Notes: generated by a model not told the origin, from the letters alone. A DNA stretch of 64,000 nucleotides from Gemmatimonadota bacterium (GCA_034521595.1 JAXHMG010000002.1:1-64000); one strand, 5' to 3'. Shown: positions 43,707 to 56,466, numbered from the stretch's first letter. Numbers and translations: made by a program.

Positions 43707-44360
43707 TCAACCGAGCTCGGCGGCGTCCACGATCGTCACCCCGGCCGCCTCCAGATCACTCCGCACGCGGTCGTCTTCGTCGGGCTGGACCCCTCGTGTC
43801 AGATCCCAGATGAAGAACGTGCTCAAGCCGGCCCCGACCGCGTCCTCCGCGGTCCACTTCGCGCACACGTCACGCGCGAGCCCGCACACGTACACGTCCT
43901 CGACGCCCCGCTCGAGGAGATACCCGGCCAGGCCGGTGGTCGGCCGCTCCCCTTCCGGATTCCAATTGTTGCGGAAGCCCGAGTACGAGTCCGTGCGTGG
44001 ATCGCTCCCCTTCCGGATGATCGCGGATACGCAGGTCCAGTCGATTTCCGGATGGAGCTCCGCGCCGGGCGTGCCCTGGACACAGTGATCGGGCCAGAGC
44101 ACCTGCTCGTGCCCGTGGAGCTGGACGACCTCCATGGGCTCCCGACCCTCGTGGCTGCTCGCGAACGAGACGTGGCCGGCCGGGTGCCAGTCCTGCGTGG
44201 CGACGTACAGGTCGAACAGATCCCGCCGGATCAAGCGGTTGACCGGCTGGAGGATATCGTCGCCGCCCTCGACGGCGAGCGCCCCGCCCGGACAGAAGTC
44301 GGGCTGGATATCGACCAGAAGAAGCGCGGACACGTCGGAACGCACGGTCTTCGAGCTCAT
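43707..44360 (-). CDS. pncA: Nicotinamidase/pyrazinamidase
   Basis: VDIQPDFCPGGAL, TQDWHP, WPDHCV, KG...DSYSGF, GLARDVC. Confidence 0.95.
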   Translation of the reverse strand: MSSKTVRSDVSALLLVDIQPDFCPGGALAVEGGDDILQPVNRLIRRDLFDLYVATQDWHPAGHVSFASSHEGREPMEVVQLHGHEQVLWPDHCVQGTPGAELHPEIDWTCVSAIIRKGSDPRTDSYSGFRNNWNPEGERPTTGLAGYLLERGVEDVYVCGLARDVCAKWTAEDAVGAGLSTFFIWDLTRGVQPDEDDRVRSDLEAAGVTIVDAAELG

Positions 44361-45790
44361 GAAGTTGTCTCCCGGTCTGTGACCTTTCTCTCGATGTCCT
44401 TCTGAAGCTGCCCCAGCGACTCGCTGACGTCCACCGCGTACGGCGGCGTGGCCGCTTCCAACTTCCGGACGCGCTCGGGAAGGCGGGCGAGCTCCTCGCG
44501 GGCCCGGCTCCTGGCGTCCTCGAGCGACGTCCGGCCGGCTTCGAGCCGCGCCCCGCCCTCCATCACCTTCTCCATGAGCGGCCGACCCGGGAGCGCCTCG
44601 TCCGCCCTGGCGATCACGTCGCGGACGGCGCCTCCCTCTTCCTCGATCCTGAACACCTGCTTCCGGCCCGGCAGAACCGGCTTGCCGGACGAGAGCTTGA
44701 GACGTCCCCGCCCGTCGTACTCCGTGAGCTTGTACGCCATGTCCAGGGAGGGCGCGTCCCGGCTCACGCCCATTCCGGTCCCCACGCCGAATCCGTCGAT
44801 CGGCGCTCCGCCGCGTACGAGCTCCCCGATCGCATGCTCGTCGAGCCCGCCGGAGGCGAAGATCTCGACGTTCCCCAGCCCGGCCGCGTCCAGGATCCCG
44901 CGCGTGGCCTTGGCCAGCTCCGCGAGGTCACCCGAGTCGAGACGCACCCCCCGCACCCGGAACCGGTCGCCGAGCTCCTCGGCCAACCGCACGACGTTCC
45001 GTACCCCGTCGAGGGTCTGGTAGGTGTCGACGAGCAGAATCGTGTCCGGGAACGTGCGCGTGAAGGCCCGGAATGCCGCCATCTCGTCATCGTGCGCCTG
45101 GACGTAGGAATGGGCCATGGTGCCGGTCACCGGTATCCCGTAGGTGCGCCCGGCGAGCACGTTGCTGGTGGCGTCGAGTCCCGCGACGTGAAAGGCGCGC
45201 GCCGACCGGAGGCCGGCGTCGGCTCCGTGCATCCTCCGCAATCCGAAGTCCACGACCTTCCGCTCGCCGGCGGCGTGCCGCACCCGCGACGCCTTCGAAG
45301 CCAACACGGTCTGGAGATGGATCTGGTTCATCACGAAGGTCTCGACGAGCTGGGCCTCGGGGAGCGACCCCCGCACCTCGAGGATCGGCTCGTCCGCGAA
45401 GACGGGCGTCCCTTCCGGAACCGCCCACACGTCGCCCCGGAAGCGCAGATCCATCAACCAGTCGAGGAAGGCCTCGTCGAACGGACCCATCGATTCGAGA
45501 TACGCACGGGCGTCGTCGTCGAAGCGCACCCGCTCGAGATACGCGAGGACGGTTTCCAATCCGCACGCCAACAGGTAGTTGCGGTCCTCGGGCAAGCGGC
45601 GCACGAAGAGGCTGAACACGGCCTGTTCCGCCATGCTCTCTGCGTAGTACGCCCGCAGCATCGTCAGCTCGTACTGGTCGACGAGCAATGCCATGTTGTC
45701 GGCCGAAACCCAGGGCATCGGATCGACGGAGCCCGTCGCGGCCTGACTCTCGCCGCTTCGGGGGTCTCGGATCTCGGTGGCGCGGGTCAC
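44357..45790 (-). CDS. pncB: Nicotinate phosphoribosyltransferase
   Basis: DQYELTM, DFGLRR, GTMAHS, LVDTY, VRLDSGD, SGGLDE, FGVGT. Confidence 0.95.
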   Translation of the reverse strand: MTRATEIRDPRSGESQAATGSVDPMPWVSADNMALLVDQYELTMLRAYYAESMAEQAVFSLFVRRLPEDRNYLLACGLETVLAYLERVRFDDDARAYLESMGPFDEAFLDWLMDLRFRGDVWAVPEGTPVFADEPILEVRGSLPEAQLVETFVMNQIHLQTVLASKASRVRHAAGERKVVDFGLRRMHGADAGLRSARAFHVAGLDATSNVLAGRTYGIPVTGTMAHSYVQAHDDEMAAFRAFTRTFPDTILLVDTYQTLDGVRNVVRLAEELGDRFRVRGVRLDSGDLAELAKATRGILDAAGLGNVEIFASGGLDEHAIGELVRGGAPIDGFGVGTGMGVSRDAPSLDMAYKLTEYDGRGRLKLSSGKPVLPGRKQVFRIEEEGGAVRDVIARADEALPGRPLMEKVMEGGARLEAGRTSLEDARSRAREELARLPERVRKLEAATPPYAVDVSESLGQLQKDIERKVTDRETTS

Positions 45791-46347
45791 TTGGCTCCTC
45801 CGGTGAGCTCCTCGAGCACTCGCGCATGCGTACGGAGCGCTCCCTGATCGTACAGCACGAAACGAATCCGCTTCACCGACGAGAGCTCCGGCGCGAGCGA
45901 CAACACGGTCTCCAGAGCCACGCGCGCCGCTTCCTCCATCGGATACCCGAACGCGCCCGTGGACAACGCGGGAAAAGCCACGGACGCGAATCTTCGTTCC
46001 TCGGCGAGGCGGAGCGCGTTACGGTAGCAGGCCGCGAGGAGCTCGTCCTCGGGCCGGTCCAGACCGTACACGGGGCCCAGACAGTGGATGACCCAGGGGT
46101 TGGGAAGCCGGTGCCCCGAGGTCACCACCGCTTCACCGGGAGCGATGGGCGCCATGGGCCGTCCCTCTTCGGCCAGGCCGGGCCCCGCCGCTCGGTGAAG
46201 GGCTCCGGCGACCCCACCCCCCGTGCGGAGCTCCGCGTTGGCCGCGTTCACGACCGCATCGAAACCGGGTTGCCCGGCGATATCCCCCATGGTGAGCTCG
46301 AGGCTCACGCCCGAAGCATCGTGCCGGATCGTGCCGTCTTCGGTCAT
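45787..46347 (-). CDS. Macrodomain protein (MacroD/YmdB-type ADP-ribosyl hydrolase)
   Basis: GDI, VNAAN, GGGVAGA, HCLGPVY, STGAFGYP. Confidence 0.93.
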   Translation of the reverse strand: MTEDGTIRHDASGVSLELTMGDIAGQPGFDAVVNAANAELRTGGGVAGALHRAAGPGLAEEGRPMAPIAPGEAVVTSGHRLPNPWVIHCLGPVYGLDRPEDELLAACYRNALRLAEERRFASVAFPALSTGAFGYPMEEAARVALETVLSLAPELSSVKRIRFVLYDQGALRTHARVLEELTGGAK

Positions 46348-46537
46348 CGACGCGCCTCCTCGTTCGAGCCGTGGAATCGCTCGCGTGTCGCAAGGATGAG
46401 AGGGTACCGGAAGGGAACGGAGGTGTTCCAAGCCTGGTCGGCAGGCCGACGTCCATCGATCTTCCGCGCCCTGCCGGGCACACCGGCGGCGCACGCGCTC
46501 ACTCCCGCTCACCTTCTTCACAGGTCTGTCGATCCCG

Positions 46538-47791
46538 ATGGCTCGTCCCTCCCGGCGCTTCCGCGGAGAGCCGCCCCTACTCGCCTACGGCGCGTCGTTC
46601 GCGCTCTTCTCGAGCTTCGGTCAGACCTTCCTCATCTCGCTCTTCGTTCCTTCCTTCGTGAGCACGTTCGATCTCAGTGACGGAGGGTTCGGCGGACTGT
46701 ATTCGGCGGCCACGCTGATCAGTGCCGCGCTCCTTCCCTGGGCGGGACGCCGATTGGACTACGTGCGGCTCAACCGCTTCAGCCTGGCGGTCGTCGCCCT
46801 GATGACGGCCTCGGCCCTCATGCTGGCTCTCGCCCCGAACGCTGCGGTGCTAGGGATCGCTCTCGTCGGGCTCCGGCTCGCGGGACAGGGGCTGTCCGGC
46901 CACACGACCCACACGGTCATGGCCCGGTACGCGGGGGCCCGACGGGGGTGGGCGCTGAGCGTCGCCGGCCTCGGCTTCCCCGCCGGCGAAGCCGTTCTAC
47001 CGTACCTGACCACCGTCGCCCTGCTCGGGCTCGGCTGGCGGGTCACCTGGCTGGTCTTCGCGGCGCTGGCCTTCGTCGTCTTCGCGCCGCTCCTCGTGGC
47101 CGTGCTCCACCGCGCGGAGATCGAGCTCGACCCGAAGAAGCTCGACGAGCACGCGGACGAGGGCCCGTCGCCCGGGAAGCGCGAGTTCGACGCCCGTGCA
47201 GGCGATTGGACCCGGGCGGCCGTCCTCCGGGACCGCCGGTTCTTCCACGCGCTGCCCTCGGCGCTCCTCCCGAGCTTCTGGCTCACCGGCATCTTCCTCT
47301 ACCAGACCCGAATCGCGGAGATGAAGGGCTGGCCGATCACGCTCATGGCCACCGCCTTCGTGGGCTTCGCCGCGAGCCGAATCGCGTTCTCGTTGTTGGC
47401 CGGACGCGTGGTGGACAGGCTCACCGCGCGCCGCGTCTACCCTTTTCTGCTCCTCCCGATGGCCGCCGCCCTCGCGCTCCCCCTGGCGGTCGACGCCCGG
47501 TGGGGCGCCTTCGGGCTGATGATCGGGCTCGGGGTGACGATGGGGATGGGCACGCCGGTCCGGTCGTCGCTCTGGGCCGAGCTCTACGGCGTCCGGCACC
47601 TGGGCGCCATCAAGGCGATGATCACCTCGTTCAGCGTGCTCGCCGCCGCCGGCAGCCCCGTGCTCATCGGGCTCGCCCTGGACGCCGACGTCGCTCTCGA
47701 CCACATCCTGTGGACGGGCGTCGCCACCACGCTCGCGGGATCCGCAGTGGCTTGGGGGCTCATGGTGGATTCGAACGACCCCGCGATATGA
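46538..47791 (+). CDS. MFS transporter
   Basis: SSFGQTF.IS.F, GRRLD, RLAGQG, WAELYG.RHLGAI; about 12 TM helices. Confidence 0.9.
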   Translation: MARPSRRFRGEPPLLAYGASFALFSSFGQTFLISLFVPSFVSTFDLSDGGFGGLYSAATLISAALLPWAGRRLDYVRLNRFSLAVVALMTASALMLALAPNAAVLGIALVGLRLAGQGLSGHTTHTVMARYAGARRGWALSVAGLGFPAGEAVLPYLTTVALLGLGWRVTWLVFAALAFVVFAPLLVAVLHRAEIELDPKKLDEHADEGPSPGKREFDARAGDWTRAAVLRDRRFFHALPSALLPSFWLTGIFLYQTRIAEMKGWPITLMATAFVGFAASRIAFSLLAGRVVDRLTARRVYPFLLLPMAAALALPLAVDARWGAFGLMIGLGVTMGMGTPVRSSLWAELYGVRHLGAIKAMITSFSVLAAAGSPVLIGLALDADVALDHILWTGVATTLAGSAVAWGLMVDSNDPAI

Positions 47792-47890
47792 CGACGACTC
47801 GACCTCCACGCGTCGTGTTCCGGCATGGAGGGGCCCGGCGAGACGTGTGAGCCTCCGATGGATCCGAACACCTTCCCCAAGGAGGCCATC

Positions 47891-48085
47891 ATGTTCGCCA
47901 AGTTTTCCCCCGCAGCGCTGCTCGCAGTTGCCACGCTGGTGTTTCTGATCGCACCGGATCGACCGGTGGCGGCATCCGAGTGCGGAGAGCTCCACGGCAT
48001 GCTCTGCGAGTCGGTGGAGGAGTGCACCGGCTTCTGGTTCTGGAAGTCGTGCACCACGTCCAACAGCTATTGGGGGGGGTTGTAG
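47891..48085 (+). CDS. Secreted four-Cys peptide A (64 aa)
   Basis: AAGGAGG SD; hydrophobic signal ending VAA; mature SECGELHGMLCESVEECTGFWFWKSCTTSNSYWGGL; paralog downstream. Confidence 0.85.
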   Translation: MFAKFSPAALLAVATLVFLIAPDRPVAASECGELHGMLCESVEECTGFWFWKSCTTSNSYWGGL

Positions 48086-48115
48086 ACGGACCGCCCCTAC
48101 ATCGACCGGAGCGCT

Positions 48116-48150
48116 CGAGGGGCCGGGGCCGGCGTGGCTCCGGCCCCTCG
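48116..48150 (+). terminator. 15-bp stem-loop between the peptide genes (no U-tract)
   Basis: CGAGGGGCCGGGGCC-GGCGT-GGCTCCGGCCCCTCG, one G-U pair. Confidence 0.6.
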
Positions 48151-48283
48151 TCACGTGCTCGCCACGCGCCGCCCGAACCCGTCCCATTCCGACATGGGTC
48201 AGCCCTCGGCAAGGCACGAGGCTACATGACCGGCTGGTGGGCCGGACGCCGTCACGGGACATCCCCAACTCACGGAGGTAGCC

Positions 48284-48478
48284 ATGTTCAAGATGCTCTC
48301 ACTCCCCACTCTGCTCCTGGCTGGAGCACTCGCTGTCGTATCCGCTCCGGGCACCGAGGTCGCCGCTTCCGAGTGCGGCGCCGACGGCCGCGAAAAATGC
48401 TGGGAGAACGAATCGTGCATTTACCTCCTCTTCTACAGTCAGTGCACGACGAAGACGAAGTACTGGGCAGGACTCTGA
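48284..48478 (+). CDS. Secreted four-Cys peptide B (64 aa)
   Basis: GGAGGT SD; signal ending VAA; mature SECGADGREKCWENESCIYLLFYSQCTTKTKYWAGL; gap-free alignment with peptide A. Confidence 0.85.
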   Translation: MFKMLSLPTLLLAGALAVVSAPGTEVAASECGADGREKCWENESCIYLLFYSQCTTKTKYWAGL

Positions 48479-48613
48479 CCCCGTACTGATCCGACGGCGG
48501 TGAGCACCACGCTCACCCGTCATGATGTTCGCGCCCGCGACGGTCCGGCCCACTACGTCGCTACCACGGCTCACGGACACGTCCGGGCCTCGGCCCGGGC
48601 ACGGAGGAAACAG

Positions 48614-49132
48614 ATGCATCCCTTTTCATACTCGACGATCACCCTGGCAATGGCCGGCATCCTCTTGGGTGTGGCTGGGTGGCGCTGGCACGAAGCCGCG
48701 GTCGTGAGACCCGACCACTTCCCCGGCGTCGACCCTCCTGCCGCCATCCTCGTCGTTCAGGAACGCGATTGTCCCGACCGACGCGCGGCCATGGCGGTGT
48801 GGCTGGACGACCTGCACGCGTCCGACGCCGGCGCGTCCCTCCCCGTCTACCTCGGGGTGCTGGGCGACGACCCCGGCCTCCTCGACCCACGAACGGACGA
48901 GCTACCCCGGCTGCCCAGCGCCGAAGCGTCGACCGCGGCGCGCGCCCTGCTTCGCGCGGGACTCTCGGGCACGCCGGCGCTCATCGTCCTCGACTCGGAA
49001 GGCCACGTCCTCCTGGCGGACACCTTCGCAACCACCGGACCCGGCGCCAGGTTGGCGCTCGCAGCCGATCTACTACCGGCGGTTCGTCCTTTCACGGGCC
49101 CCGCCGACGTCCTTCAGCCCGATGGAGGGTGA
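48614..49132 (+). CDS. Membrane-anchored thioredoxin-fold-like protein (single Cys)
   Basis: GGAGG SD; N-terminal TM; ILVVQERDCPDR and GLSGTPALIVLDSEG (cis-Pro loop pattern). Confidence 0.65.
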   Translation: MHPFSYSTITLAMAGILLGVAGWRWHEAAVVRPDHFPGVDPPAAILVVQERDCPDRRAAMAVWLDDLHASDAGASLPVYLGVLGDDPGLLDPRTDELPRLPSAEASTAARALLRAGLSGTPALIVLDSEGHVLLADTFATTGPGARLALAADLLPAVRPFTGPADVLQPDGG

Positions 49133-49135
49133 CCC

Positions 49136-50590
49136 ATGGAACAGCTCCCGTTGCTGCTGAACATCGTCGGCGTGGGCCTCTGGCTCGGTTTCACGGTGGA
49201 TTTCCTGCGGCGCCCTCCACTCCAACCCCGGTCGTGGGGTCGGAACGTGAGGCGCGGTGCGTGGGTGGGGCTCGCCATGCTCTTTTTGGCTGCCGGGGGG
49301 TGGGGTCCCGAGATGTCGCATTCGACGACGAGCGACTTTTCCCGCGACCCCGACGTGGGAACCCCGGTTGAGACGACGAGCAGCTTGCTCCGCACCCCGT
49401 TCGCGATCTACGAAAGCACCGCGGTGATGGACAGAGAGGGACGCACGATCCGTCAGGATCGCATGGTCACCAGGCAGCTCCCGTTGGCTCTGCTGATCTT
49501 CCTCGCGGGTGCGTTCTGGCTCCGGCGTCGCCGCGAGCTCTCGGAGAAACGGAGTCCCACGAGCAGAGGGGCGACGGATGCTCTGGCCTTGGTGGGAATC
49601 CTGTCCGCCACGCTCACCGGCGCCGGATGCGGCGACCCCGCGCCCTGGGACGGGGACCGTCCGGAACGCAAGATCGTGGACGTGACGTGGGATACGCTGG
49701 CTCACGTACGTTCCGGAGTGAACGACTCGCTGCTGTTCTCGGCGAGCGGCGTGGCCGCGGACGAGGAGGGGTTCTGGGTGGGCGACCTGTACGGCGACCG
49801 CGTGGCTCGCTTCGACTGGGAAGGACGGCTGCTGCGGTACGTAGGCGACTCCGGCCGGGGACCGGGCGAGATTGGACGCGTCCACGAGATCGACGTGGAC
49901 GGCGAGGGCGTGCTCTGGATCCTGGACCCCGAGAACACCCGGATCACGGGCTTCGATCAGAGCGGCGCCCTCGTCGACGAAGTGCCGTTTCGGGGTTTGG
50001 ATGCCTCCCCCGGATCGTTCGCGGTGAGTCGCGATGGGAGAACATTCATGTCCATGCTCCCTTCCGACCGGCTCGAGCCGATCCTTATCCACCGTGACGG
50101 GCGCATCGAACGGGGCACGCAGATCCCCGTGCCCGATGCGAACGGCGCATTCGGCCTGGCCCTGCAAGGTCGGGTCGCCCGCCACGACCACGGCTGGCTG
50201 TTCGCGTTCACCTCCGGAGACGGCATCTTCCGCATGCGCGGCCTCGAGACCGTCGGGCCGCGGCTCCGGTACCCGGAGGCCATCCCGTTCCCGGGCATCA
50301 CCCGATCCGTGCAGCGGGACGGACGTCGCACCTCGACGACGACCCGGCTCGCGGAGCGCAATCCGGCCGCGGCCGCCATCTCCACCCGAGGGTCGGAGCT
50401 GCTCGTCGTCTTTCACGGGGAAAGCCCGAACGCCGGACGCCTCCTCGACCGCTACGACCTCGAGCGGGGCCGTTACCTCGACACGGTCCTCCTACCCGTG
50501 TCGGGATACGTCGCTGCATGGGACGACCGGCTCGTCGTGGCCCGGACCAACCCACGACCCGAGCTCCTCGTTCTCCGACAGGTCGAGTGA
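49136..50590 (+). CDS. Membrane domain fused to 6-bladed (NHL/DUF5128-like) beta-propeller
   Basis: Three hydrophobic helices, internal lipobox-like LTGAGC (Cys165), GRGPGE, LWILDPENTRITGFD, LDRYDLERGRYLDT. Confidence 0.8.
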   Translation: MEQLPLLLNIVGVGLWLGFTVDFLRRPPLQPRSWGRNVRRGAWVGLAMLFLAAGGWGPEMSHSTTSDFSRDPDVGTPVETTSSLLRTPFAIYESTAVMDREGRTIRQDRMVTRQLPLALLIFLAGAFWLRRRRELSEKRSPTSRGATDALALVGILSATLTGAGCGDPAPWDGDRPERKIVDVTWDTLAHVRSGVNDSLLFSASGVAADEEGFWVGDLYGDRVARFDWEGRLLRYVGDSGRGPGEIGRVHEIDVDGEGVLWILDPENTRITGFDQSGALVDEVPFRGLDASPGSFAVSRDGRTFMSMLPSDRLEPILIHRDGRIERGTQIPVPDANGAFGLALQGRVARHDHGWLFAFTSGDGIFRMRGLETVGPRLRYPEAIPFPGITRSVQRDGRRTSTTTRLAERNPAAAAISTRGSELLVVFHGESPNAGRLLDRYDLERGRYLDTVLLPVSGYVAAWDDRLVVARTNPRPELLVLRQVE

Positions 50591-50607
50591 CGTGCTAGCA
50601 GCCCGCG

Positions 50608-52020
50608 CTACGGCACGAGCTCGCGGATGATTCCGTCGTGCTTGTTCAACAGGAAAAGACGGTCGTCCGGACCCGTGCCGAAACGGAGGTCGGTCCGCTC
50701 GGGTGCCGGAGCGCCGACGGCCGCTGCGCGATCCTGCATGACTTCCAGGAAGGTCTTGGCCGCACCGCCGTCTTCGAGGAGCACCCGTCGGATCGCCGCC
50801 TGCCCCCCCTCCGGCAGCACGTCCGCCGAGATATGGAAGATCTCTCCGCTCACCATCTCTCCGAACAGGATACGATCCTGCAGCTGCGGGATCCTGTCAT
50901 TACGTGGCACGACCACGCCCGTGATGGCGACCCTGGACTGAAACAGGGGGTCGGCCTGATCGAACTCCGCGATGGGAAAGGTGACGTCCGGGTCCGACCG
51001 CGGAGACATGCGGTCGACACCCGACCGGCTCACGAAGCGGAAGCTTCCCTCCCAGGTGTTCCATCCCAGGTCGGCGCCGGCGGTCACACGGCTGAGCTCC
51101 TCGACGGCGTTCTGTCCGATGTCGGCGACGAACAGGCTCCCGTTGGCCGGGTCCCACCCGAAGCGCTGAGGGTTGCGGAAGCCCGACGCGTAGACTTCGG
51201 GCAGCGCCCCGTCTCCTTCGCTCACGAACGGATTGTGCTCGGGCACGCCGTACTCGCCCGTGGAGCCGTCGGTCCCCTGCGGATCGATCCGCAGGATCTT
51301 CCCGAACGGGGAGCCGAGGTCCTGGGCGAGATCGAGCGGGTCGCCCCCGCTCCCCCCGTCCGCCACCCCGACGTACAACATCCCGAAGTCGGGGTCATCC
51401 GGCTCGGCCAACGGGTTGAAGGCGATGTGTCCGGCGTTGTGGTTGCCGAAGGGTTGCTCCAAGCGGAGCAGCTCCCTGGGCTCCTCCCCGTCATACGTGT
51501 CCGCGTCGGGAGAGGTCGCGGTCCATTCGAGGAGCACCGTATGATGACTCGCCTCCCCACTCCCGGCCGTGAAGTGGGGCTCGGGAGACATGTCGTCGGT
51601 GTCCAGCCAAGTGTAGAGCTTCCCGTATCCGGGTGTCCCGGGCTCGTTGAACTGCGGATGCAACGCGAAGCTCTGAAAGCCACGCTCTCGCCCCGACGCG
51701 TCGACGGGCACGCCCCAATCCGCGTGGTCCACGTCGAGGTACCGTGCCACGTCGCCGTCGTACCCGACGGTGTACAGCGGGCCCCACATATCGTTGACGA
51801 ACATGCGCTCCGTACCCGGCTCGTCCACGAGAAGCATCGGCCGCGCGGGTGCTCCGTCGATTTCCGGGAGGGAAGCGAACTCTTCGTACGCCACGACCGC
51901 GACGTCTTCCGTGGCTTCGATGGGCTCGGTGAACGGGTCGTCGGTCGCGCTGGTGCAACCGAGACTCACGACGGTCAGGGCGACAGTGACCTGTCGGGCC
52001 CATCGGACACGGTGACTCAT
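50608..52020 (-). CDS. PQQ-dependent sugar dehydrogenase-like (GSDH) lipoprotein
   Basis: Lipobox SLGC; QPFGNHNAG, DGGSGGDP, GKILRIDP, GFRNPQRF, DIGQN..EE. Confidence 0.88.
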   Translation of the reverse strand: MSHRVRWARQVTVALTVVSLGCTSATDDPFTEPIEATEDVAVVAYEEFASLPEIDGAPARPMLLVDEPGTERMFVNDMWGPLYTVGYDGDVARYLDVDHADWGVPVDASGRERGFQSFALHPQFNEPGTPGYGKLYTWLDTDDMSPEPHFTAGSGEASHHTVLLEWTATSPDADTYDGEEPRELLRLEQPFGNHNAGHIAFNPLAEPDDPDFGMLYVGVADGGSGGDPLDLAQDLGSPFGKILRIDPQGTDGSTGEYGVPEHNPFVSEGDGALPEVYASGFRNPQRFGWDPANGSLFVADIGQNAVEELSRVTAGADLGWNTWEGSFRFVSRSGVDRMSPRSDPDVTFPIAEFDQADPLFQSRVAITGVVVPRNDRIPQLQDRILFGEMVSGEIFHISADVLPEGGQAAIRRVLLEDGGAAKTFLEVMQDRAAAVGAPAPERTDLRFGTGPDDRLFLLNKHDGIIRELVP

Positions 52021-52053
52021 GGGGACGGCGTCTCCTTTCATGTCAGGTTCATC

Positions 52054-53043
52054 TCAGCGCGGCGTATCGGTGCCGTGGGGCATGATCCAAGGTGCTCGAG
52101 CGTCCGCTTTCCCTTCGAGGGGGTTCAGATAGACCCGCTGCGTGGAGTATGCGAAGGCGATGTCGTCGTGCGTGGCGAAGGTGTCGAAAATTCGTTCCCA
52201 GATCGCCTGCGCCGTGCCGCGTCGCTGTCTGGGGCGACACAAGTACCGGATGGTCAGCGAGACACCGCTCGCCCCGAGAGACGTGTAGACGGCCGGCGTG
52301 AACCGGCTGTAATGGATGAGGAAGCGCTTCGAAGTCTGCTTCAGCGTGCGCTCCGCTTCCTCGCTGACGCTCCGGGTCTCGGCGAGCGCCACCTCTTCGA
52401 GCACGGCCTTCGCTTTCCGCCAATCGCTCTCGAAGGTCACGAGCACCGGCAGCTCGTTCCACAGAAACGGAAAGCCCGACGTGTAGTTGGCAAGGGACTC
52501 GGTGAAGACCTTGGAGTTGGGGATGTGGATCATTCGGCCCGTGCTCTGGTCGGCTTCGACCCAATTCCCGATCTCCATGATCGTGAACTGGAACAGCCGG
52601 ACGTCGACCACGTCACCCGCTCGTTCTCCGACCTGAATGCGATCGCCGAGCTCGAACGGCTTGCGCCAGAGGATGAACAGCCACCCTGCCACGTCGGCCA
52701 CGAGGTCCTTGAGCGCGATCGCCAGTCCTGCCGAGACCAAGCCCAGAAAGGTTCCGAGAGACCTCAAGGCGGTAAACCAGACCTGCATGATGACCAGCAG
52801 GCCGATCAGGAACGCAGCGTAACCCGACGCCTTCGACCAGCGGTACACGAGCGCACGGTGCTCGAAGCGGCGCTCGACCACGCGAACAAGAATCCGGCGA
52901 CCGATCACCAGCGCGGCGACGAGGCATGCCGACAGGAGGATCTTCGTCTGTGTTTCGGGCGTGAGCCCGTAGATCAGTCGTTCCGTGACCGCGGCGCTGT
53001 CCGAGGCGACCTGCGCGCCGAGCGGCATGACCTGAAGTGCCAT
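52054..53043 (-). CDS. Mechanosensitive channel, MscS family
   Basis: LGLVSAGLAIALKD, PFELGDRIQVG, QSTGR.IHIPNS. Confidence 0.9.
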   Translation of the reverse strand: MALQVMPLGAQVASDSAAVTERLIYGLTPETQTKILLSACLVAALVIGRRILVRVVERRFEHRALVYRWSKASGYAAFLIGLLVIMQVWFTALRSLGTFLGLVSAGLAIALKDLVADVAGWLFILWRKPFELGDRIQVGERAGDVVDVRLFQFTIMEIGNWVEADQSTGRMIHIPNSKVFTESLANYTSGFPFLWNELPVLVTFESDWRKAKAVLEEVALAETRSVSEEAERTLKQTSKRFLIHYSRFTPAVYTSLGASGVSLTIRYLCRPRQRRGTAQAIWERIFDTFATHDDIAFAYSTQRVYLNPLEGKADARAPWIMPHGTDTPR

Positions 53044-53101
53044 CGAGTGTTCCGTTCCGGGACCGGGCGGTGCGAGGGCCTATCCTGGGCACCGAAGGGC
53101 T

Positions 53102-53328
53102 TAGCAGCCCGTGGTAGAAGTCTGGCCCGCGCAGGGTCTTGCGTGTCGCAGGCAAGGCGGCTTCTTGAAGGCGATGCCGTAGCATCGGCGAAAGGAGCTA
53201 ACGCCGCATGCGGCCGCAACCCTCGTGCCCTCGGGTTGGGCGGCACGGCCCCCTCCGTCGGCTCACGGCTCTGGGGCTCGCCGTAGATCGCGGGCCTGCG
53301 CTCCACGCGGGCCGCCACGGGCTGCTAG
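53102..53328. mobile_element. MITE with IS5/IS1182-type ends
   Basis: TAGCAGCCCGTGG (53102-53114) and CCACGGGCTGCTA (53315-53327) perfect IRs; TTAG/CTAG flanks; non-coding and hairpin-rich. Confidence 0.7.
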
Positions 53329-53342
53329 GCCAGAGCAGACGG

Positions 53343-53903
53343 TCAGCGCACGTCCATGGGAAGGCCGGCCACGAGGAAAAGGACGCGGTGGGCCTCGCGT
53401 GCGATGCGCGCGTTGACCCAGCCCAGCATATCCCGATACCGGCGAGCGAGCGCGTTGTCCGGCACGACGCCGAGTCCCACTTCGTTGGTCACGACCAGCA
53501 GCGTTCCTTCGCGCGCCCGGGCCGTGCGAAGGAGCTCCTCGACGTGATCCGAGACCACCCCATCGCCCGGCGTCCGGGGATCGGTGACGGGCTCCGTGTC
53601 CAACTCGGGCGCGGACAGTGCGTGCATCAGGTTCGAGACCCAGACGGTCACGCAATCGATCAGAACGACCGAAGCTTCGGCGGCCCCGACGGCCTCGGGC
53701 ACGGCGAGGGGGGCCTCCACCGTGATCCAGCCCGGAGGCCGGGATGCCCGGTGGGCCGCGATCCGGGCCGTCATCTCCTCGTCTCCACGCTCGGCCGTCG
53801 CCACGTAGACGACCTCGTCGCCCGCGATCCTTCCGGCTTCGTCCTCCGCCCACCGACTCTTACCGGCCCTCGCCCCGCCGGTCACCAGCACGATCTTCAT
53901 CAT
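53343..53903 (-). CDS. cobU: Adenosylcobinamide kinase/guanylyltransferase
   Basis: VTGGARAGKS.WAE, YVATA, RIAAH, LIDCVT.W, TNEVGLGVVP. Confidence 0.95.
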   Translation of the reverse strand: MMKIVLVTGGARAGKSRWAEDEAGRIAGDEVVYVATAERGDEEMTARIAAHRASRPPGWITVEAPLAVPEAVGAAEASVVLIDCVTVWVSNLMHALSAPELDTEPVTDPRTPGDGVVSDHVEELLRTARAREGTLLVVTNEVGLGVVPDNALARRYRDMLGWVNARIAREAHRVLFLVAGLPMDVR

Positions 53904-55405
53904 CGCGCGAGGATCTCGTCGATGTCGAGCGCCCCTTCCACGGCGTCCGCGACCACGTCGATGGGGTCGGGGCCCGGGAACTCCGGAGTCCGGTCGACCA
54001 GGGTCGCCGGGACGGAATGCCCGGTAGGCGCCGCCGGGAGTCCGGCTAGAGCGAGCCAGGCATTCCTGAACGCCGGGTCGGACAGACATCCGTGGACGTA
54101 CGTGCCCCAGACCCGACCGGACCGGTATCCGAGCTCGCGCTCCGGGTCGTCCTCGTCATGGACGAACGCGGGCGAGCCCGACCGGGTGCGGCCATGGTGG
54201 ATCTCGTAGCCCGAGAGGACGCCGATGCGCCCGGACGGGCCCGACCACCGGGCCGTGACGCGACGGACCGTCTTGGTTCCCTCGAGCACCGTGCTCACGG
54301 GCAGGAGCCCGAGGCCCTGGCGCGCGCTGCCCCCTGCACGTGTGGCTCCACCCTCGATGCCCTCCGGATCTTCCACCGTGCGTCCGAGCATCTGGAGCCC
54401 CCCGCAGAGTCCGAGCACGGGAACCCCGGCGCCGGCTCGCTCCCGGATCGCCCCGCCCAGCCCCGAGGCATGGAGCCAGTCGAGGTCGGCGACGACGTTC
54501 CGGCTCCCCGGTAGAACGATCGCGGCGGCCCCATCGAGCGCCTCGGGCCGGTCCGCCCAACGCACGCCGACCCCCGGCATCCTTTCGAGCGGGAGCACGT
54601 CGTCGAAGTTCGCGATTCGAGGCAAGCGGACGACGGCGACGGTACCGTCCGCCCCTTCCGACGCCCGTTCGATCACGGCCGCGTCCTCGTCCGGAAGCCG
54701 CGCGGAGACCCAGGGCACGACGCCGAGCGTCTCCACCCCGGTGTGGCGCCGCACGACCTCGGGGGCGTCGCCGAGCAGCGCCGGATCTCCTCGGAAGCGG
54801 TTGAGCACGAAGCCACGAAGACGGGCCCGGTCGGCCGGCCGCATGAGCTCCCACGTACCGACGAGGGAGGCGAAGGCCCCGCCCCGGTCGATGTCGGCGA
54901 CGAGGATCACGGGCGCGTCCGCGTACCGGGCGACGGCCATGTTCACGATGTCCGAATCGGCCAGGTTGATCTCGGCCGGGGAGCCGGCGCCTTCGATCAC
55001 CACCCAATCGAAGTCCCCACGGAGGGCGTCGAGAGCGCTCGCGACCTCCGGCCACAGCACGCTCCGGCGCTCGGTCCAGGGGATCTCGGCGAGATCCGGA
55101 CGGGACACGCCCCGCAACACGACGTCGGAGCGGGTGTCGGCGAGCGGCTTCAGCAACACCGGGTTCATCCGCTCGTCGACGTCGACGCCGGCCGCCTCCG
55201 CCTGCACGGCTTGAGCGCGTCCGACCTCGCCACCACGGGAAGTCACGGCCGCGTTGTTCGACATGTTCTGGGCCTTGAACGGCGCCACGGCGATGCCCCT
55301 TCTACGGAGCACCCGACAAAGTCCGGCGACGAGCCAGGACTTTCCGACCCCCGAAGCGGTGCCCTGCACCATCAACGTTCTGGCGTAGCGCCCGGCCCCC
55401 GTCAT
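53900..55405 (-). CDS. cobQ: Cobyric acid synthase
   Basis: QGTASGVGKS, PFKAQNMSNN, EGAGSPAEINL, DIDRGG, GLCGG, GTYVHG. Confidence 0.95.
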   Translation of the reverse strand: MTGAGRYARTLMVQGTASGVGKSWLVAGLCRVLRRRGIAVAPFKAQNMSNNAAVTSRGGEVGRAQAVQAEAAGVDVDERMNPVLLKPLADTRSDVVLRGVSRPDLAEIPWTERRSVLWPEVASALDALRGDFDWVVIEGAGSPAEINLADSDIVNMAVARYADAPVILVADIDRGGAFASLVGTWELMRPADRARLRGFVLNRFRGDPALLGDAPEVVRRHTGVETLGVVPWVSARLPDEDAAVIERASEGADGTVAVVRLPRIANFDDVLPLERMPGVGVRWADRPEALDGAAAIVLPGSRNVVADLDWLHASGLGGAIRERAGAGVPVLGLCGGLQMLGRTVEDPEGIEGGATRAGGSARQGLGLLPVSTVLEGTKTVRRVTARWSGPSGRIGVLSGYEIHHGRTRSGSPAFVHDEDDPERELGYRSGRVWGTYVHGCLSDPAFRNAWLALAGLPAAPTGHSVPATLVDRTPEFPGPDPIDVVADAVEGALDIDEILAR

Positions 55406-56466
55406 GCTTCCTCTCGTCCACTCACGCCGGCGGCCGAGAACGTCCTCATCTCGCGCAGCATCGCCGCCGCCGCGTCGAGCAGCGGCAGCGCGAGCGCCGC
55501 GCCCGAGCCCTCGCCGAGACGGAGGCGGAGATCGAGCAACGGGTCGAGCTCGAGCGCCCGGAGCTGCAACGCGTGCCCGGGCTCGGTGGAGAGGTGGGAG
55601 GCGAAGAGGTAGTCCTGCACATCCGGAGCGATGCGGACCGCCGCCAGAGCGGCCGCGGTCGCGATGAAGCCGTCCAGGACGACGGGCTTGCCCCGACGCG
55701 TCGCTTCCAGGACCACGCCGACGAGCCCCGCCAATTCGGCGCCACCGACTTCGGAGAGCGCCCGAATCGGGCTCGCGTCCGCCGGCACCCGCTGGAGCGC
55801 CTTCGTGATCACCCGGCACTTCCGAAGCACGCCCTCCCGGTCGACGCCCGTCCCCGCCCCCACCACCTCGGCCGGATCCGCCCCGAGCAGCGCCGCGGTG
55901 ACCGCAGCGGCTGCGGTCGTGTTTCCGATCCCCATCTCCCCGGTCGCGACGACACGGGCGGCCGGGGCCCGGTCGCGCACCAGATCGGCGCCCGCCTGGA
56001 CGGCCCGTGCCACGTCGGCGTCCGAGAGCGCCCGCTCGACGGACAGATCGGCCGTCCCCCGGACCACGTTCTGGTCGCACACACCCGGGTAGGCGACCGG
56101 TTTCCGGACCCCCAGGTCGGCCACGACGACGTCCGCGCGGGCGACGCGGGCGAAGACCGATACCGCCGCGCCGCCGTCCGCGATGTTGCGACACATCTGG
56201 GCCGTGACCTCCGCAGGATACGCGCTCACCCCCTGAGCGGTGACGCCGTGATCGCCCGCGAGGACGAGCACCACACGGGGGTGGAGGTCGGGGGGCGGGT
56301 CCCCGAGGATCCGGGCGAGCCGGCACGCGACATCTTCCAGACGCCCGAGACTGCCCGGGGGTTTCGTGAGGTCATCCAGGTGCGCGCGCACCTCGCGTTC
56401 TCCTGCGGCGGTCGGTGCGGCGATGGATCCGACTCGCTCCTCCACGGTTCGGCCGGCCACGCTCAC
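55402..56466 (-). CDS. cobT: Nicotinate-nucleotide-DMB phosphoribosyltransferase
   Basis: LTKPPGSLGRLE, AGDHGV, GEMGIGNTT, LDGFI, RLGEGSGA. Confidence 0.95.
   Translation of the reverse strand: MSVAGRTVEERVGSIAAPTAAGEREVRAHLDDLTKPPGSLGRLEDVACRLARILGDPPPDLHPRVVLVLAGDHGVTAQGVSAYPAEVTAQMCRNIADGGAAVSVFARVARADVVVADLGVRKPVAYPGVCDQNVVRGTADLSVERALSDADVARAVQAGADLVRDRAPAARVVATGEMGIGNTTAAAAVTAALLGADPAEVVGAGTGVDREGVLRKCRVITKALQRVPADASPIRALSEVGGAELAGLVGVVLEATRRGKPVVLDGFIATAAALAAVRIAPDVQDYLFASHLSTEPGHALQLRALELDPLLDLRLRLGEGSGAALALPLLDAAAAMLREMRTFSAAGVSGREEA

Follow-up and report, generated by a model that had tools for sequence, protein, structure and literature searches.

Here, we describe a cassette of four co-oriented genes from a Gemmatimonadota bacterium, which encodes two paralogous peptides with four cysteines each (pepA and pepB), a thioredoxin-like (Trx-like) protein, and a transmembrane (TM) module fused to a six-bladed beta-propeller. 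The cassette spans positions 47891-50590 on the plus strand of a 64,000-nucleotide stretch of the assembly GCA_034521595.1 (JAXHMG010000002.1:1-64000), the whole of which is hereafter called the window. On the basis of sequence comparisons, we regard it as a recurrent, family-less four-part unit of Gemmatimonadota: all four parts fall below every curated family model (neither the peptides nor the two larger proteins reached the cut-off of a Pfam or NCBIfam model), and nevertheless several families of the phylum have kept the set. This agrees with the original prediction, made from this DNA alone, of a candidate undescribed system, and no paper describing the gene set turned up in the literature searches. 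As for its function, we tentatively favor a reading in which the Trx-like protein, as a monothiol, would shuffle or hold the disulfides of the peptides, and the peptide would dock on the propeller in the cell envelope. Signal peptides, membrane topology, the lipobox and disulfide formation were all read from the sequence.

Recurrence of the cassette

The survey covered 401 genomes of the phylum from 147 genera, and its searches (tblastn and jackhmmer) were seeded solely from window proteins; related genomes are not independent, and the counts are given as recurrence, not as statistics. When pepA alone was the query, matches with E < 1e-3 were found in 12 genomes including its own, and 15 loci were fetched around these matches and three weaker ones. 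Of these loci, 10 had a Trx-like open reading frame (ORF) adjoining the peptide and L051 had a further, weak one; the propeller and the TM module were found in 9 loci each. One of the 12 genomes (G362, locus L050) was later dropped because its hit (E 3.2e-4 with pepA, 59 bits after jackhmmer) was spurious: it had no signal peptide, ran antisense to a 731-amino acid (aa) ORF and showed a G+C fraction at third codon positions of 0.93. A profile of 18 peptides detected the family in 20 of the 401 genomes and 11 of the 147 genera, and the peptide adjoined a Trx-like gene in 18 of the 20 profile-positive genomes. Such a profile search had been proposed as a check along with the original prediction, and it found the architecture to recur. 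The two exceptions were not counted as cassettes: the peptide hit of G255 (L078) had only a weak propeller nearby, and in G246 (L079) four weak peptide-like matches had no Trx-like or propeller gene adjoining. The matches in L079 (G246:C1:1201500-1213300) follow one another every ~3.65 kb, three of them in 152-aa frames and the fourth in a frame truncated where the fetched sequence ends, and are probably part of a tandemly repeated unit of another kind.

The genome of the window carries exactly one cassette, and pepA had no match in its 3.49 Mb other than pepB. In the closest clade (G328, G326, G239 and G365), the gene order of the window and the TM-propeller fusion are kept, with one peptide gene. 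In three loci of another family (L049, L044 and L047), the propeller (~335 aa) is a lipoprotein that carries a signal peptide of its own, and the TM module (~160 aa) is encoded apart from it. The set persists through the orders pep-trx-TMprop, pep-trx-prop-TM, pep-trx-TM and trx-prop-pep-pep, the last of these in G208, and the order pep-pep-trx-prop was seen in G343. In L044 (G270:C6), the propeller match is split over two frames and a TGA lies inside the Trx-like match, which could come from a frameshift, from decay of this copy or from faulty assembly. When the peptide profile was compared with 1.84 billion representative proteins, 184 clusters were matched at E ≤ 1e-3, 40 of them at E ≤ 1e-10, and the Cys framework was kept in 140 of 150 clusters among the matches listed. 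The names given to homologues in their sources are 'hypothetical protein', '6-bladed beta-propeller' or 'Gemmatimonadota bacterium', the last of which supports the phylum assignment, and the 10 peptide-family proteins that were looked up were all 'hypothetical protein'.

The Trx-like profile matched 46 of the 401 genomes at E ≤ 1e-4. Once the sequences that had built the profile were set aside, the best 20 of the remaining loci showed a cassette-type propeller gene (E ≤ 2e-27) directly after the Trx-like gene in 16 cases and the TM module in none. When 16 loci of this wider set were scanned with a simple heuristic, other, unrelated small secreted Cys-rich ORFs were detected in 10. The combination of a Trx-like protein, a propeller and Cys-rich peptides is widespread in the phylum, and the form found in the window, characterized by the present peptide family and by the TM module, is one subfamily of it.

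The four parts and the predicted peptide-propeller complex

In both peptides, as read by eye, the N-terminus is basic, there is a hydrophobic stretch, and the residues right before the first Cys are A-A-S. In pepA, a Sec-type signal peptide of about residues 1-29 would leave a mature part of ~35 aa with Cys31, Cys39, Cys45 and Cys54, an FWFW aromatic cluster and a C-terminal Y-W-G-G-L. The pepB product has the same Cys framework (core CWENESC...QCTT...YW) and matched the family hidden Markov model with E 1.5e-23. The two precursors are 41% identical (E 1.3e-8), and their description as paralogous, signal-bearing four-Cys peptides stood. Among 18 aligned family members, three of the four Cys are invariant and one is nearly so. 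Besides these Cys, the alignment contains no conserved His, Asp or Met ligands, and the earlier suggestion of metal-binding peptides was discarded. A fungal-type CBM1 was rejected as well: the Cys spacing is similar, but the chain 1az6 was matched with E 0.39, and none of the 18 members gave a Pfam CBM_1 hit. The peptides had also been likened to the NVEALA peptides of Bacteroidota; neither pepA nor pepB matched PF14055 at E ≤ 0.1, none of the 18 family members did so at E ≤ 10, and this likeness was not supported. The peptide profile found nothing significant among PDB sequences, and the top ESM Atlas score for pepB was 0.79, below the level counted as meaningful. In one genus, the peptides (L043:5979-6314, L046:6006-6323 and L049:3796-4107) include a Gly-rich linker as well as another conserved loop, which two extra Cys close (G-C-x-W-G-R/Q-D-Y-V/I-G-W-x-P-R-x-C), giving a two-module mini-protein.

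The propeller domain was modeled with a predicted local distance difference test score (pLDDT) of 92 and a predicted template modeling score of 0.90, and the model has six blades. The top Foldseek matches were the NHL domains of Brat, TRIM2 and TRIM71 (E 2.5e-12, TM-score 0.67-0.77), and the profile comparison with PDB sequences gave the NHL domain of TRIM71 with E 6.7e-43, PAL with 6e-12 and SOQ1 with 0.006. With this fold and its NHL sequence repeats, the propeller belongs to the NHL-repeat six-bladed superfamily (PF01436), although the canonical NHL motif (G-R-G-P-G-E) is kept in one blade only. The earlier account of a TM domain fused to a GRGPGE-type six-bladed propeller, 3 bp after the Trx-like gene, therefore held. 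A beta-hairpin insertion at domain residues 223-240 is conserved, and no candidate catalytic residues are conserved in the propeller beyond the NHL structural motifs. The match to ScyF-NHL (E 7e-8) was far under the cut-off of that model. DUF5128 (PF17170) covered residues 223-279 only, with E 0.0012 and 18.5 bits versus a cut-off of 22.9, and the protein is not scored as a member; nevertheless, precomputed PF17170 hits in four close propeller relatives (P0026, P0030, P0036 and P0038), together with this sub-threshold match, make a distant link to the Bacteroidota propellers plausible. The DUF5128/NVEALA neighborhoods of Bacteroidota resemble the cassette, by database names and the account in the original prediction, in that a lipoprotein six-bladed propeller adjoins small secreted proteins. 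Of the analogy drawn in the original prediction, the distant propeller link is what remains, since the peptides lack PF14055 and the propeller is under the PF17170 cut-off; at best, it is by way of their propellers that the two are distantly related. The literature search gave no paper that deals with the NVEALA/DUF5128 neighborhood. Outside the window, at G000:C3:961642-973292 of the same genome, the propeller profile was partially matched (E 1e-16 to 2e-4) by at least 7 adjacent ORFs of 390-460 aa, which make up an array of NHL-like paralogues; about twelve others are dispersed over this genome.

For the complex prediction, the propeller domain and mature pepA (residues 29-64) were each supplied with their own alignment. 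The interaction prediction score from aligned errors (ipSAE) was 0.76 (0.72, 0.77 and 0.76 in the separate runs), and the best control gave 0.01. Of 157 solved complexes, 116 reach the ipSAE mark used, as do 2 of 215 mismatched pairs; these counts hold only roughly here, since own alignments were used. The runs agreed in at least 92% of the contacts, and the pLDDT of the partner was at least 77. In the model, pepA residues 38-45, i.e., the stretch from Cys39 to Cys45, pair in antiparallel orientation with propeller-domain residues 233-240, which form the second strand of the conserved hairpin insertion. In the prediction, loops from five blades, every one except blade 2, make further contacts with pepA, and many interface residues adjoin conserved columns of the propeller alignment. 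Collectively, the models predict that mature pepA docks on the propeller, a positive outcome for the peptide-propeller part of the complex check that had been proposed. The propeller had been suggested to act as a receptor, an immunity protein or a chaperone; the predicted binding of pepA fits this suggestion.

The AlphaFold2 model of the Trx-like protein, from a 30-sequence alignment, has a pLDDT of 84 and shows a thioredoxin fold preceded by an N-terminal helix (residues 6-30), the predicted membrane anchor. Its Foldseek neighbors were tryparedoxin, DsbE, CcmG, ResA and TlpA-type proteins (best E 3.9e-5), in agreement with the claim of a membrane-anchored protein with a Trx-like fold. By sequence alone, neither Pfam nor NCBIfam gave a hit, and the profile comparison with PDB sequences found nothing significant (DsbE E 0.08). 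In the model, a strand (44-49) is followed by Cys53 at the N-terminus of helix 54-69. This Cys, in the motif D-C-P-D-R, occupies the place of the nucleophilic Cys of CXXC proteins, and the conserved T120-P121 before strand 122-126 takes the cis-Pro position. Cys53 is the sole conserved Cys, invariant in 12 sequences and present in at least 90% of 30. With one conserved Cys and no CXXC, the protein is not an ordinary oxidase or reductase, and on the evidence of its model we consider it a natural monothiol Trx-fold protein of the TlpA/CcmG type. The fold is that of a periplasmic thiol-disulfide oxidoreductase, which supports this part of the original prediction, with the refinement that a single Cys is conserved. 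Elsewhere, the host genome encodes one DsbB and three Thioredoxin_4 (DsbA-like) proteins; VKOR was not found in it.

The TM module has three hydrophobic helices, a ~55-aa loop predicted to be periplasmic between the second and third, almost no cytoplasmic part besides short basic loops, and the conserved motifs R-x-P-F and Q-(L/I/V)-P. An alignment of 13 sequences contains no conserved Cys. DsbB and VKOR carry redox Cys pairs, and a thiol oxidase of the DsbB, VKOR or MauE type was rejected on this lack of conserved Cys; no Pfam family was matched at cut-off either. ESM Atlas scores for the module did not exceed 0.81, the value for its free form, and were below the meaningful level. The module occurs as a free gene, fused to the propeller (in the window, 4 related genomes and 7 database clusters) or fused to a peptide precursor. 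The latter fusion is found in four representative clusters of 233-290 aa (P0161, P0183, P0184 and P0188), in the order TM module, signal-peptide-like segment and C-terminal four-Cys peptide of the family; P0161 and P0183 have one member each, on contigs of 1.5 and 4.0 kb, so a gene-calling artifact is possible for these two. In the TM-propeller fusions (476-509 aa), the junction Cys is kept in 8 of 8, and the junction fits a lipobox-like pattern in 7, with G-A-S-A-C in P0026. Cys165 is the only Cys of the 484-aa protein. Free propellers of 340-348 aa have an N-terminal lipoprotein-type signal peptide with a Cys at about residue 19, and the segment ending at Cys165 is, by its pattern, a retained lipoprotein signal peptide of the propeller. 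Whether fused to the propeller or to a peptide, the module stands ahead of a partner whose signal peptide is intact, suggesting cleavage into two products, and it is a separate, mobile module.

Relation to known systems and possible functions

By architecture, the closest known systems are NHLRC2/SOQ1, the MauA/B/D/E genes and the DUF5128 neighborhoods of Bacteroidota, and the cassette is a member of none of them. The mauB/mauE/mauD/mauA genes encode between them a propeller, a small disulfide-rich secreted partner that binds it, a membrane-anchored Trx-like protein and a small multi-TM protein, i.e., the same four kinds of parts. However, no sequence relationship to the cassette proteins was detected, no MauG or other mau genes lie nearby, and the cassette has a six-bladed NHL propeller, ~35-aa peptides and a monothiol Trx-like protein. 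In the excerpted account of MauE, this protein is linked to small-subunit maturation and needs a CXC motif (10.64898/2026.03.05.709764), which the TM module of the cassette lacks. NHLRC2 of animals and SOQ1 of the plant thylakoid lumen also combine a TlpA-like Trx fold with a six-bladed NHL propeller on the non-cytoplasmic side of a membrane. Excerpts of the published work state that the Trx-like active site of these proteins faces the top face of the NHL domain (bioRxiv 10.1101/2021.03.16.435614; PMC6107167), that the lumenal domains of SOQ1 have methionine sulfoxide reductase activity (10.1101/2024.11.01.621559), and, within the excerpt concerned, that bacterial NHLRC2 homologues have no conserved neighbors (PMC6107167). 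In the cassette, by contrast, the parts are separate, tightly coupled genes, a single Cys in D-C-P-D-R stands in place of the CC(I/V)NC in the cleft of NHLRC2 (excerpt of PMC6107167), dedicated four-Cys peptide genes and the 3-TM module are added, and there is no DsbD-like C-terminal domain. An orthologue of NHLRC2/SOQ1 was rejected on the separate genes, the D-C-P-D-R motif and, as weak evidence, the fact that no fused forms were found among longer proteins. In DsbI, the membrane domain is DsbB-like and redox-active. The DsbI-type protein HP0595 of Helicobacter pylori is described, in an excerpt, as a membrane domain fused to a periplasmic beta-propeller, with HP0231 as its Dsb partner (PMC4597128), and thus resembles the cassette in a membrane domain-propeller fusion that works with a dedicated Trx-fold protein. 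It differs in that the TM module has no conserved Cys and the host DsbB is encoded separately.

In the reading that we favor, the two precursors would be exported by Sec and freed of their signal peptides, giving mini-proteins of ~35 aa with four Cys and two disulfides. The host DsbB and DsbA-like proteins would serve bulk oxidation, and the membrane-anchored TlpA-like protein would be a dedicated, reductant-independent disulfide shuffler or holdase: Cys53 would attack a peptide disulfide and form a transient mixed disulfide, to be released by the peptide's own thiol. Since only the nucleophilic Cys is kept, no internal disulfide could form, and the protein would need no DsbD-type reductant to stay reactive. 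The peptide, folded or still folding, would then dock on the NHL propeller, where the stretch between its second and third Cys is predicted to add as a beta-strand to the conserved hairpin, and the 3-TM module would hold the propeller at the inner membrane, or else lipobox cleavage would make the propeller a lipoprotein. The working end state would be the peptide bound to its propeller within the envelope rather than free peptide secreted from the cell. The cassette provides a Trx-like/NHL pair with a definite client that can be put to the test; for the fused eukaryotic NHLRC2, an essential human disease gene, and for SOQ1, the question of the client has been difficult to answer. A natural periplasmic monothiol Trx-fold protein would, in addition, show disulfide shuffling in an oxidizing compartment without a DsbD-type electron supply.

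Several points weigh against this reading. The ipSAE of 0.76 is a model confidence and not a measurement, and pepA is the one peptide modeled. Three positions after Cys53, the residue varies (R, Y, H or A, leaving no CXXC), and isomerase activity is presumed for a natural monothiol TlpA-like protein, with parallels in the CXXS variants of PDI or DsbC, which retain this activity. The 12 strongest hits of the Trx-like profile were those that built it, so their E-values are not independent evidence. Moreover, G258 (92% complete) and G388 (90% complete, one contig), of one genus, keep the peptide, the Trx-like protein and the TM module (L043 and L046), and a cassette-type propeller is absent from both genome-wide at E ≤ 1e-20, which means that the propeller is not indispensable; G368, the third genome of this genus, has all four parts. 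The TM module, in turn, was not found within 6 kb of the peptide in G208 and G343, nor in 26 more distant loci. Finally, duplicated, fast-diverging peptides and a small TM protein would also fit a toxin-immunity system.

Such a bacteriocin-like system is the main rival explanation, possible although we doubt it: the peptides would be released for antimicrobial action or competition, the Trx-like protein would mature their disulfides, and the propeller lipoprotein and the 3-TM protein would provide immunity by peptide sequestration or membrane shielding. The duplication and rapid divergence of the peptide genes (41% identity in the window), with one or two family peptides per examined locus, speak for it, as do the aromatic, amphipathic core of the peptides and the strong hairpin behind the first peptide gene. 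Immunity factors are typically lipoproteins or small multi-TM proteins; the predicted tight binding by the propeller would suit sequestration, and the loss of the propeller with the TM protein kept in G258 and G388 fits redundant immunity. The sublancin operon (sunA-bdbA-bdbB) encodes dedicated Bdb oxidoreductases, and in operons of this type, as in the cassette, a small Cys peptide gene adjoins the gene of a dedicated Trx-fold protein. The cassette, however, includes no ABC exporter/protease or glycosyltransferase, its peptide has a Sec signal instead of a double-glycine leader, the Trx-like protein is a monothiol, and a propeller belongs to the set. Release is also difficult to reconcile with the lack of an exporter, a leader protease or an outer-membrane route in the cassette and its varying neighbors, and the Sec signal would reach only the periplasm in a diderm cell. 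A single cassette per genome speaks against this explanation too, and the TM module fused ahead of a peptide precursor would make an odd immunity-toxin polyprotein. If the peptides were released instead, a phylum with hardly any cultured members would be the source of a family of small peptides, stapled by disulfides, that is still untapped. A cluster for peptides made ribosomally and modified post-translationally was rejected: as the original prediction had stated, no radical SAM, YcaO, MNIO or Lan enzyme is found next to the precursors (Pfam scans of the genes at 43707-56326).

The cassette could also be a split bacterial counterpart of NHLRC2/SOQ1 with its client encoded alongside, i.e., a client-specific disulfide-shuffling and docking device with the 3-TM module as a detachable membrane pro-domain, which we consider unlikely. 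The monothiol Trx-like protein would then need no reductant, the propeller would grip the client by beta-strand addition, and the 3-TM module would be freed from either fusion partner at the internal lipobox or signal-peptidase site. If true, the cassette would represent a new class of envelope system dedicated to folding and assembly, and a tractable model for how Trx-NHL proteins treat their substrates.

We regard as quite improbable a split NHLRC2/SOQ1-like redox unit, in which the Trx-like protein and the propeller would form a membrane enzyme for thiol-based repair or modification, and the peptides would be redox substrates, thiol donors, cofactor carriers, regulators or a MauA-like small subunit. 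The Trx-like/propeller pair is the widest conserved core, kept in 16 of the 20 best loci outside the sequences of the profile, all without the TM module, and unrelated secreted Cys-rich ORFs accompany 10 of the 16 scanned; the two genes lie 3 bp apart in the window, and the active site is at the interface in the solved Trx-like+NHL fusions, as far as the excerpts cited above describe them. In addition, the mau cluster combines a propeller and a Cys-rich small subunit with the Trx-like MauD and the membrane protein MauE. Against the redox unit speak the lack of fused forms (again, weak evidence), of conserved candidate catalytic residues in the propeller beyond the NHL structural motifs, of the NHLRC2 motif, and of CXC or any conserved Cys in the TM module, and the two genomes without a cassette-type propeller. 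Lastly, an envelope-sensing module, in which the disulfide state of the peptide or its binding to the propeller would report redox or envelope stress and the TM module would relay it, is very improbable: a pair of genes for an extracytoplasmic function (ECF) sigma factor and an anti-sigma factor lies ~1.6-2.7 kb upstream, in divergent orientation, in L039, L040 and L042 (read from ORF translations), but this pair is on the other strand with another gene between it and the cassette, no regulator adjoins the cassette in the window, and the TM module has nearly no cytoplasmic part.

Locus layout and neighborhood

The coordinates of the cassette features are given in Table 1. As had been claimed for the four genes, a GGAGG Shine-Dalgarno sequence precedes each ATG, by 5-7 nt, and the ATG of the propeller gene lies 3 bp past the TGA stop of the Trx-like gene (49130-49132). 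The pattern GGAGG-N(4-8)-ATG occurs 17 times on both strands of the window, versus a mean of 11.5 in shuffled sequences, and 4 of the 17 matches are the cassette starts (47881, 48274, 48603 and 49124). The Trx-like frame is open from a GTG at 48500; the ATG chosen has the Shine-Dalgarno sequence, and relatives align from it.

Table 1. Features of the cassette in the window.
Feature	Position	Strand	Description
pepA	47891-48085	+	64-aa precursor, ORF call
Perfect hairpin	48116-48150	+	15-bp stem, 5-nt loop, G+C-rich
pepB	48284-48478	+	64-aa paralogue of pepA, ORF call
Trx-like gene	48614-49132	+	172 aa, ORF call
TM module + propeller gene	49136-50590	+	484 aa, ORF call
3-TM module	49136-49540	+	Residues 1-135 of the 484-aa protein
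Fourth hydrophobic segment with lipobox-like L-T-G-A-G-C	49550-49630	+	Ends at Cys165
Six-bladed NHL-type beta-propeller domain	49631-50590	+	Residues 166-484

The hairpin lies 30 nt 3' of the pepA stop, has no U-tract after it, and is present in both the minimum free energy and the centroid structure, with a z-score of just -1.1 for the whole region. It was not among the sites reported by the terminator scan, and is possibly an attenuator or an RNA-stabilizing element that could set the ratio of peptide to enzyme transcripts. The promoter scan returned 0 sigma-70-like sites and the terminator-like sites were intragenic, a scan that is uninformative for this phylum.

The genes that neighbor the cassette encode isochorismatase-family, NAPRTase, macro-domain, MFS, GSDH-like, MscS-like, CobU and CobQ proteins. 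In three relatives, genes for class-V aminotransferase-like, ECF sigma and anti-sigma-like proteins lie divergently upstream (L039:3313-5738, L040:2632-4659 and L042:3465-5858), and none of these is present in the window. At 43707-46521 of the window, the genes for the isochorismatase-family (nicotinamidase-like) protein, NAPRTase and the macro-domain protein are co-oriented on the minus strand, and by their families this trio looks like a set for NAD salvage and ADP-ribose handling.

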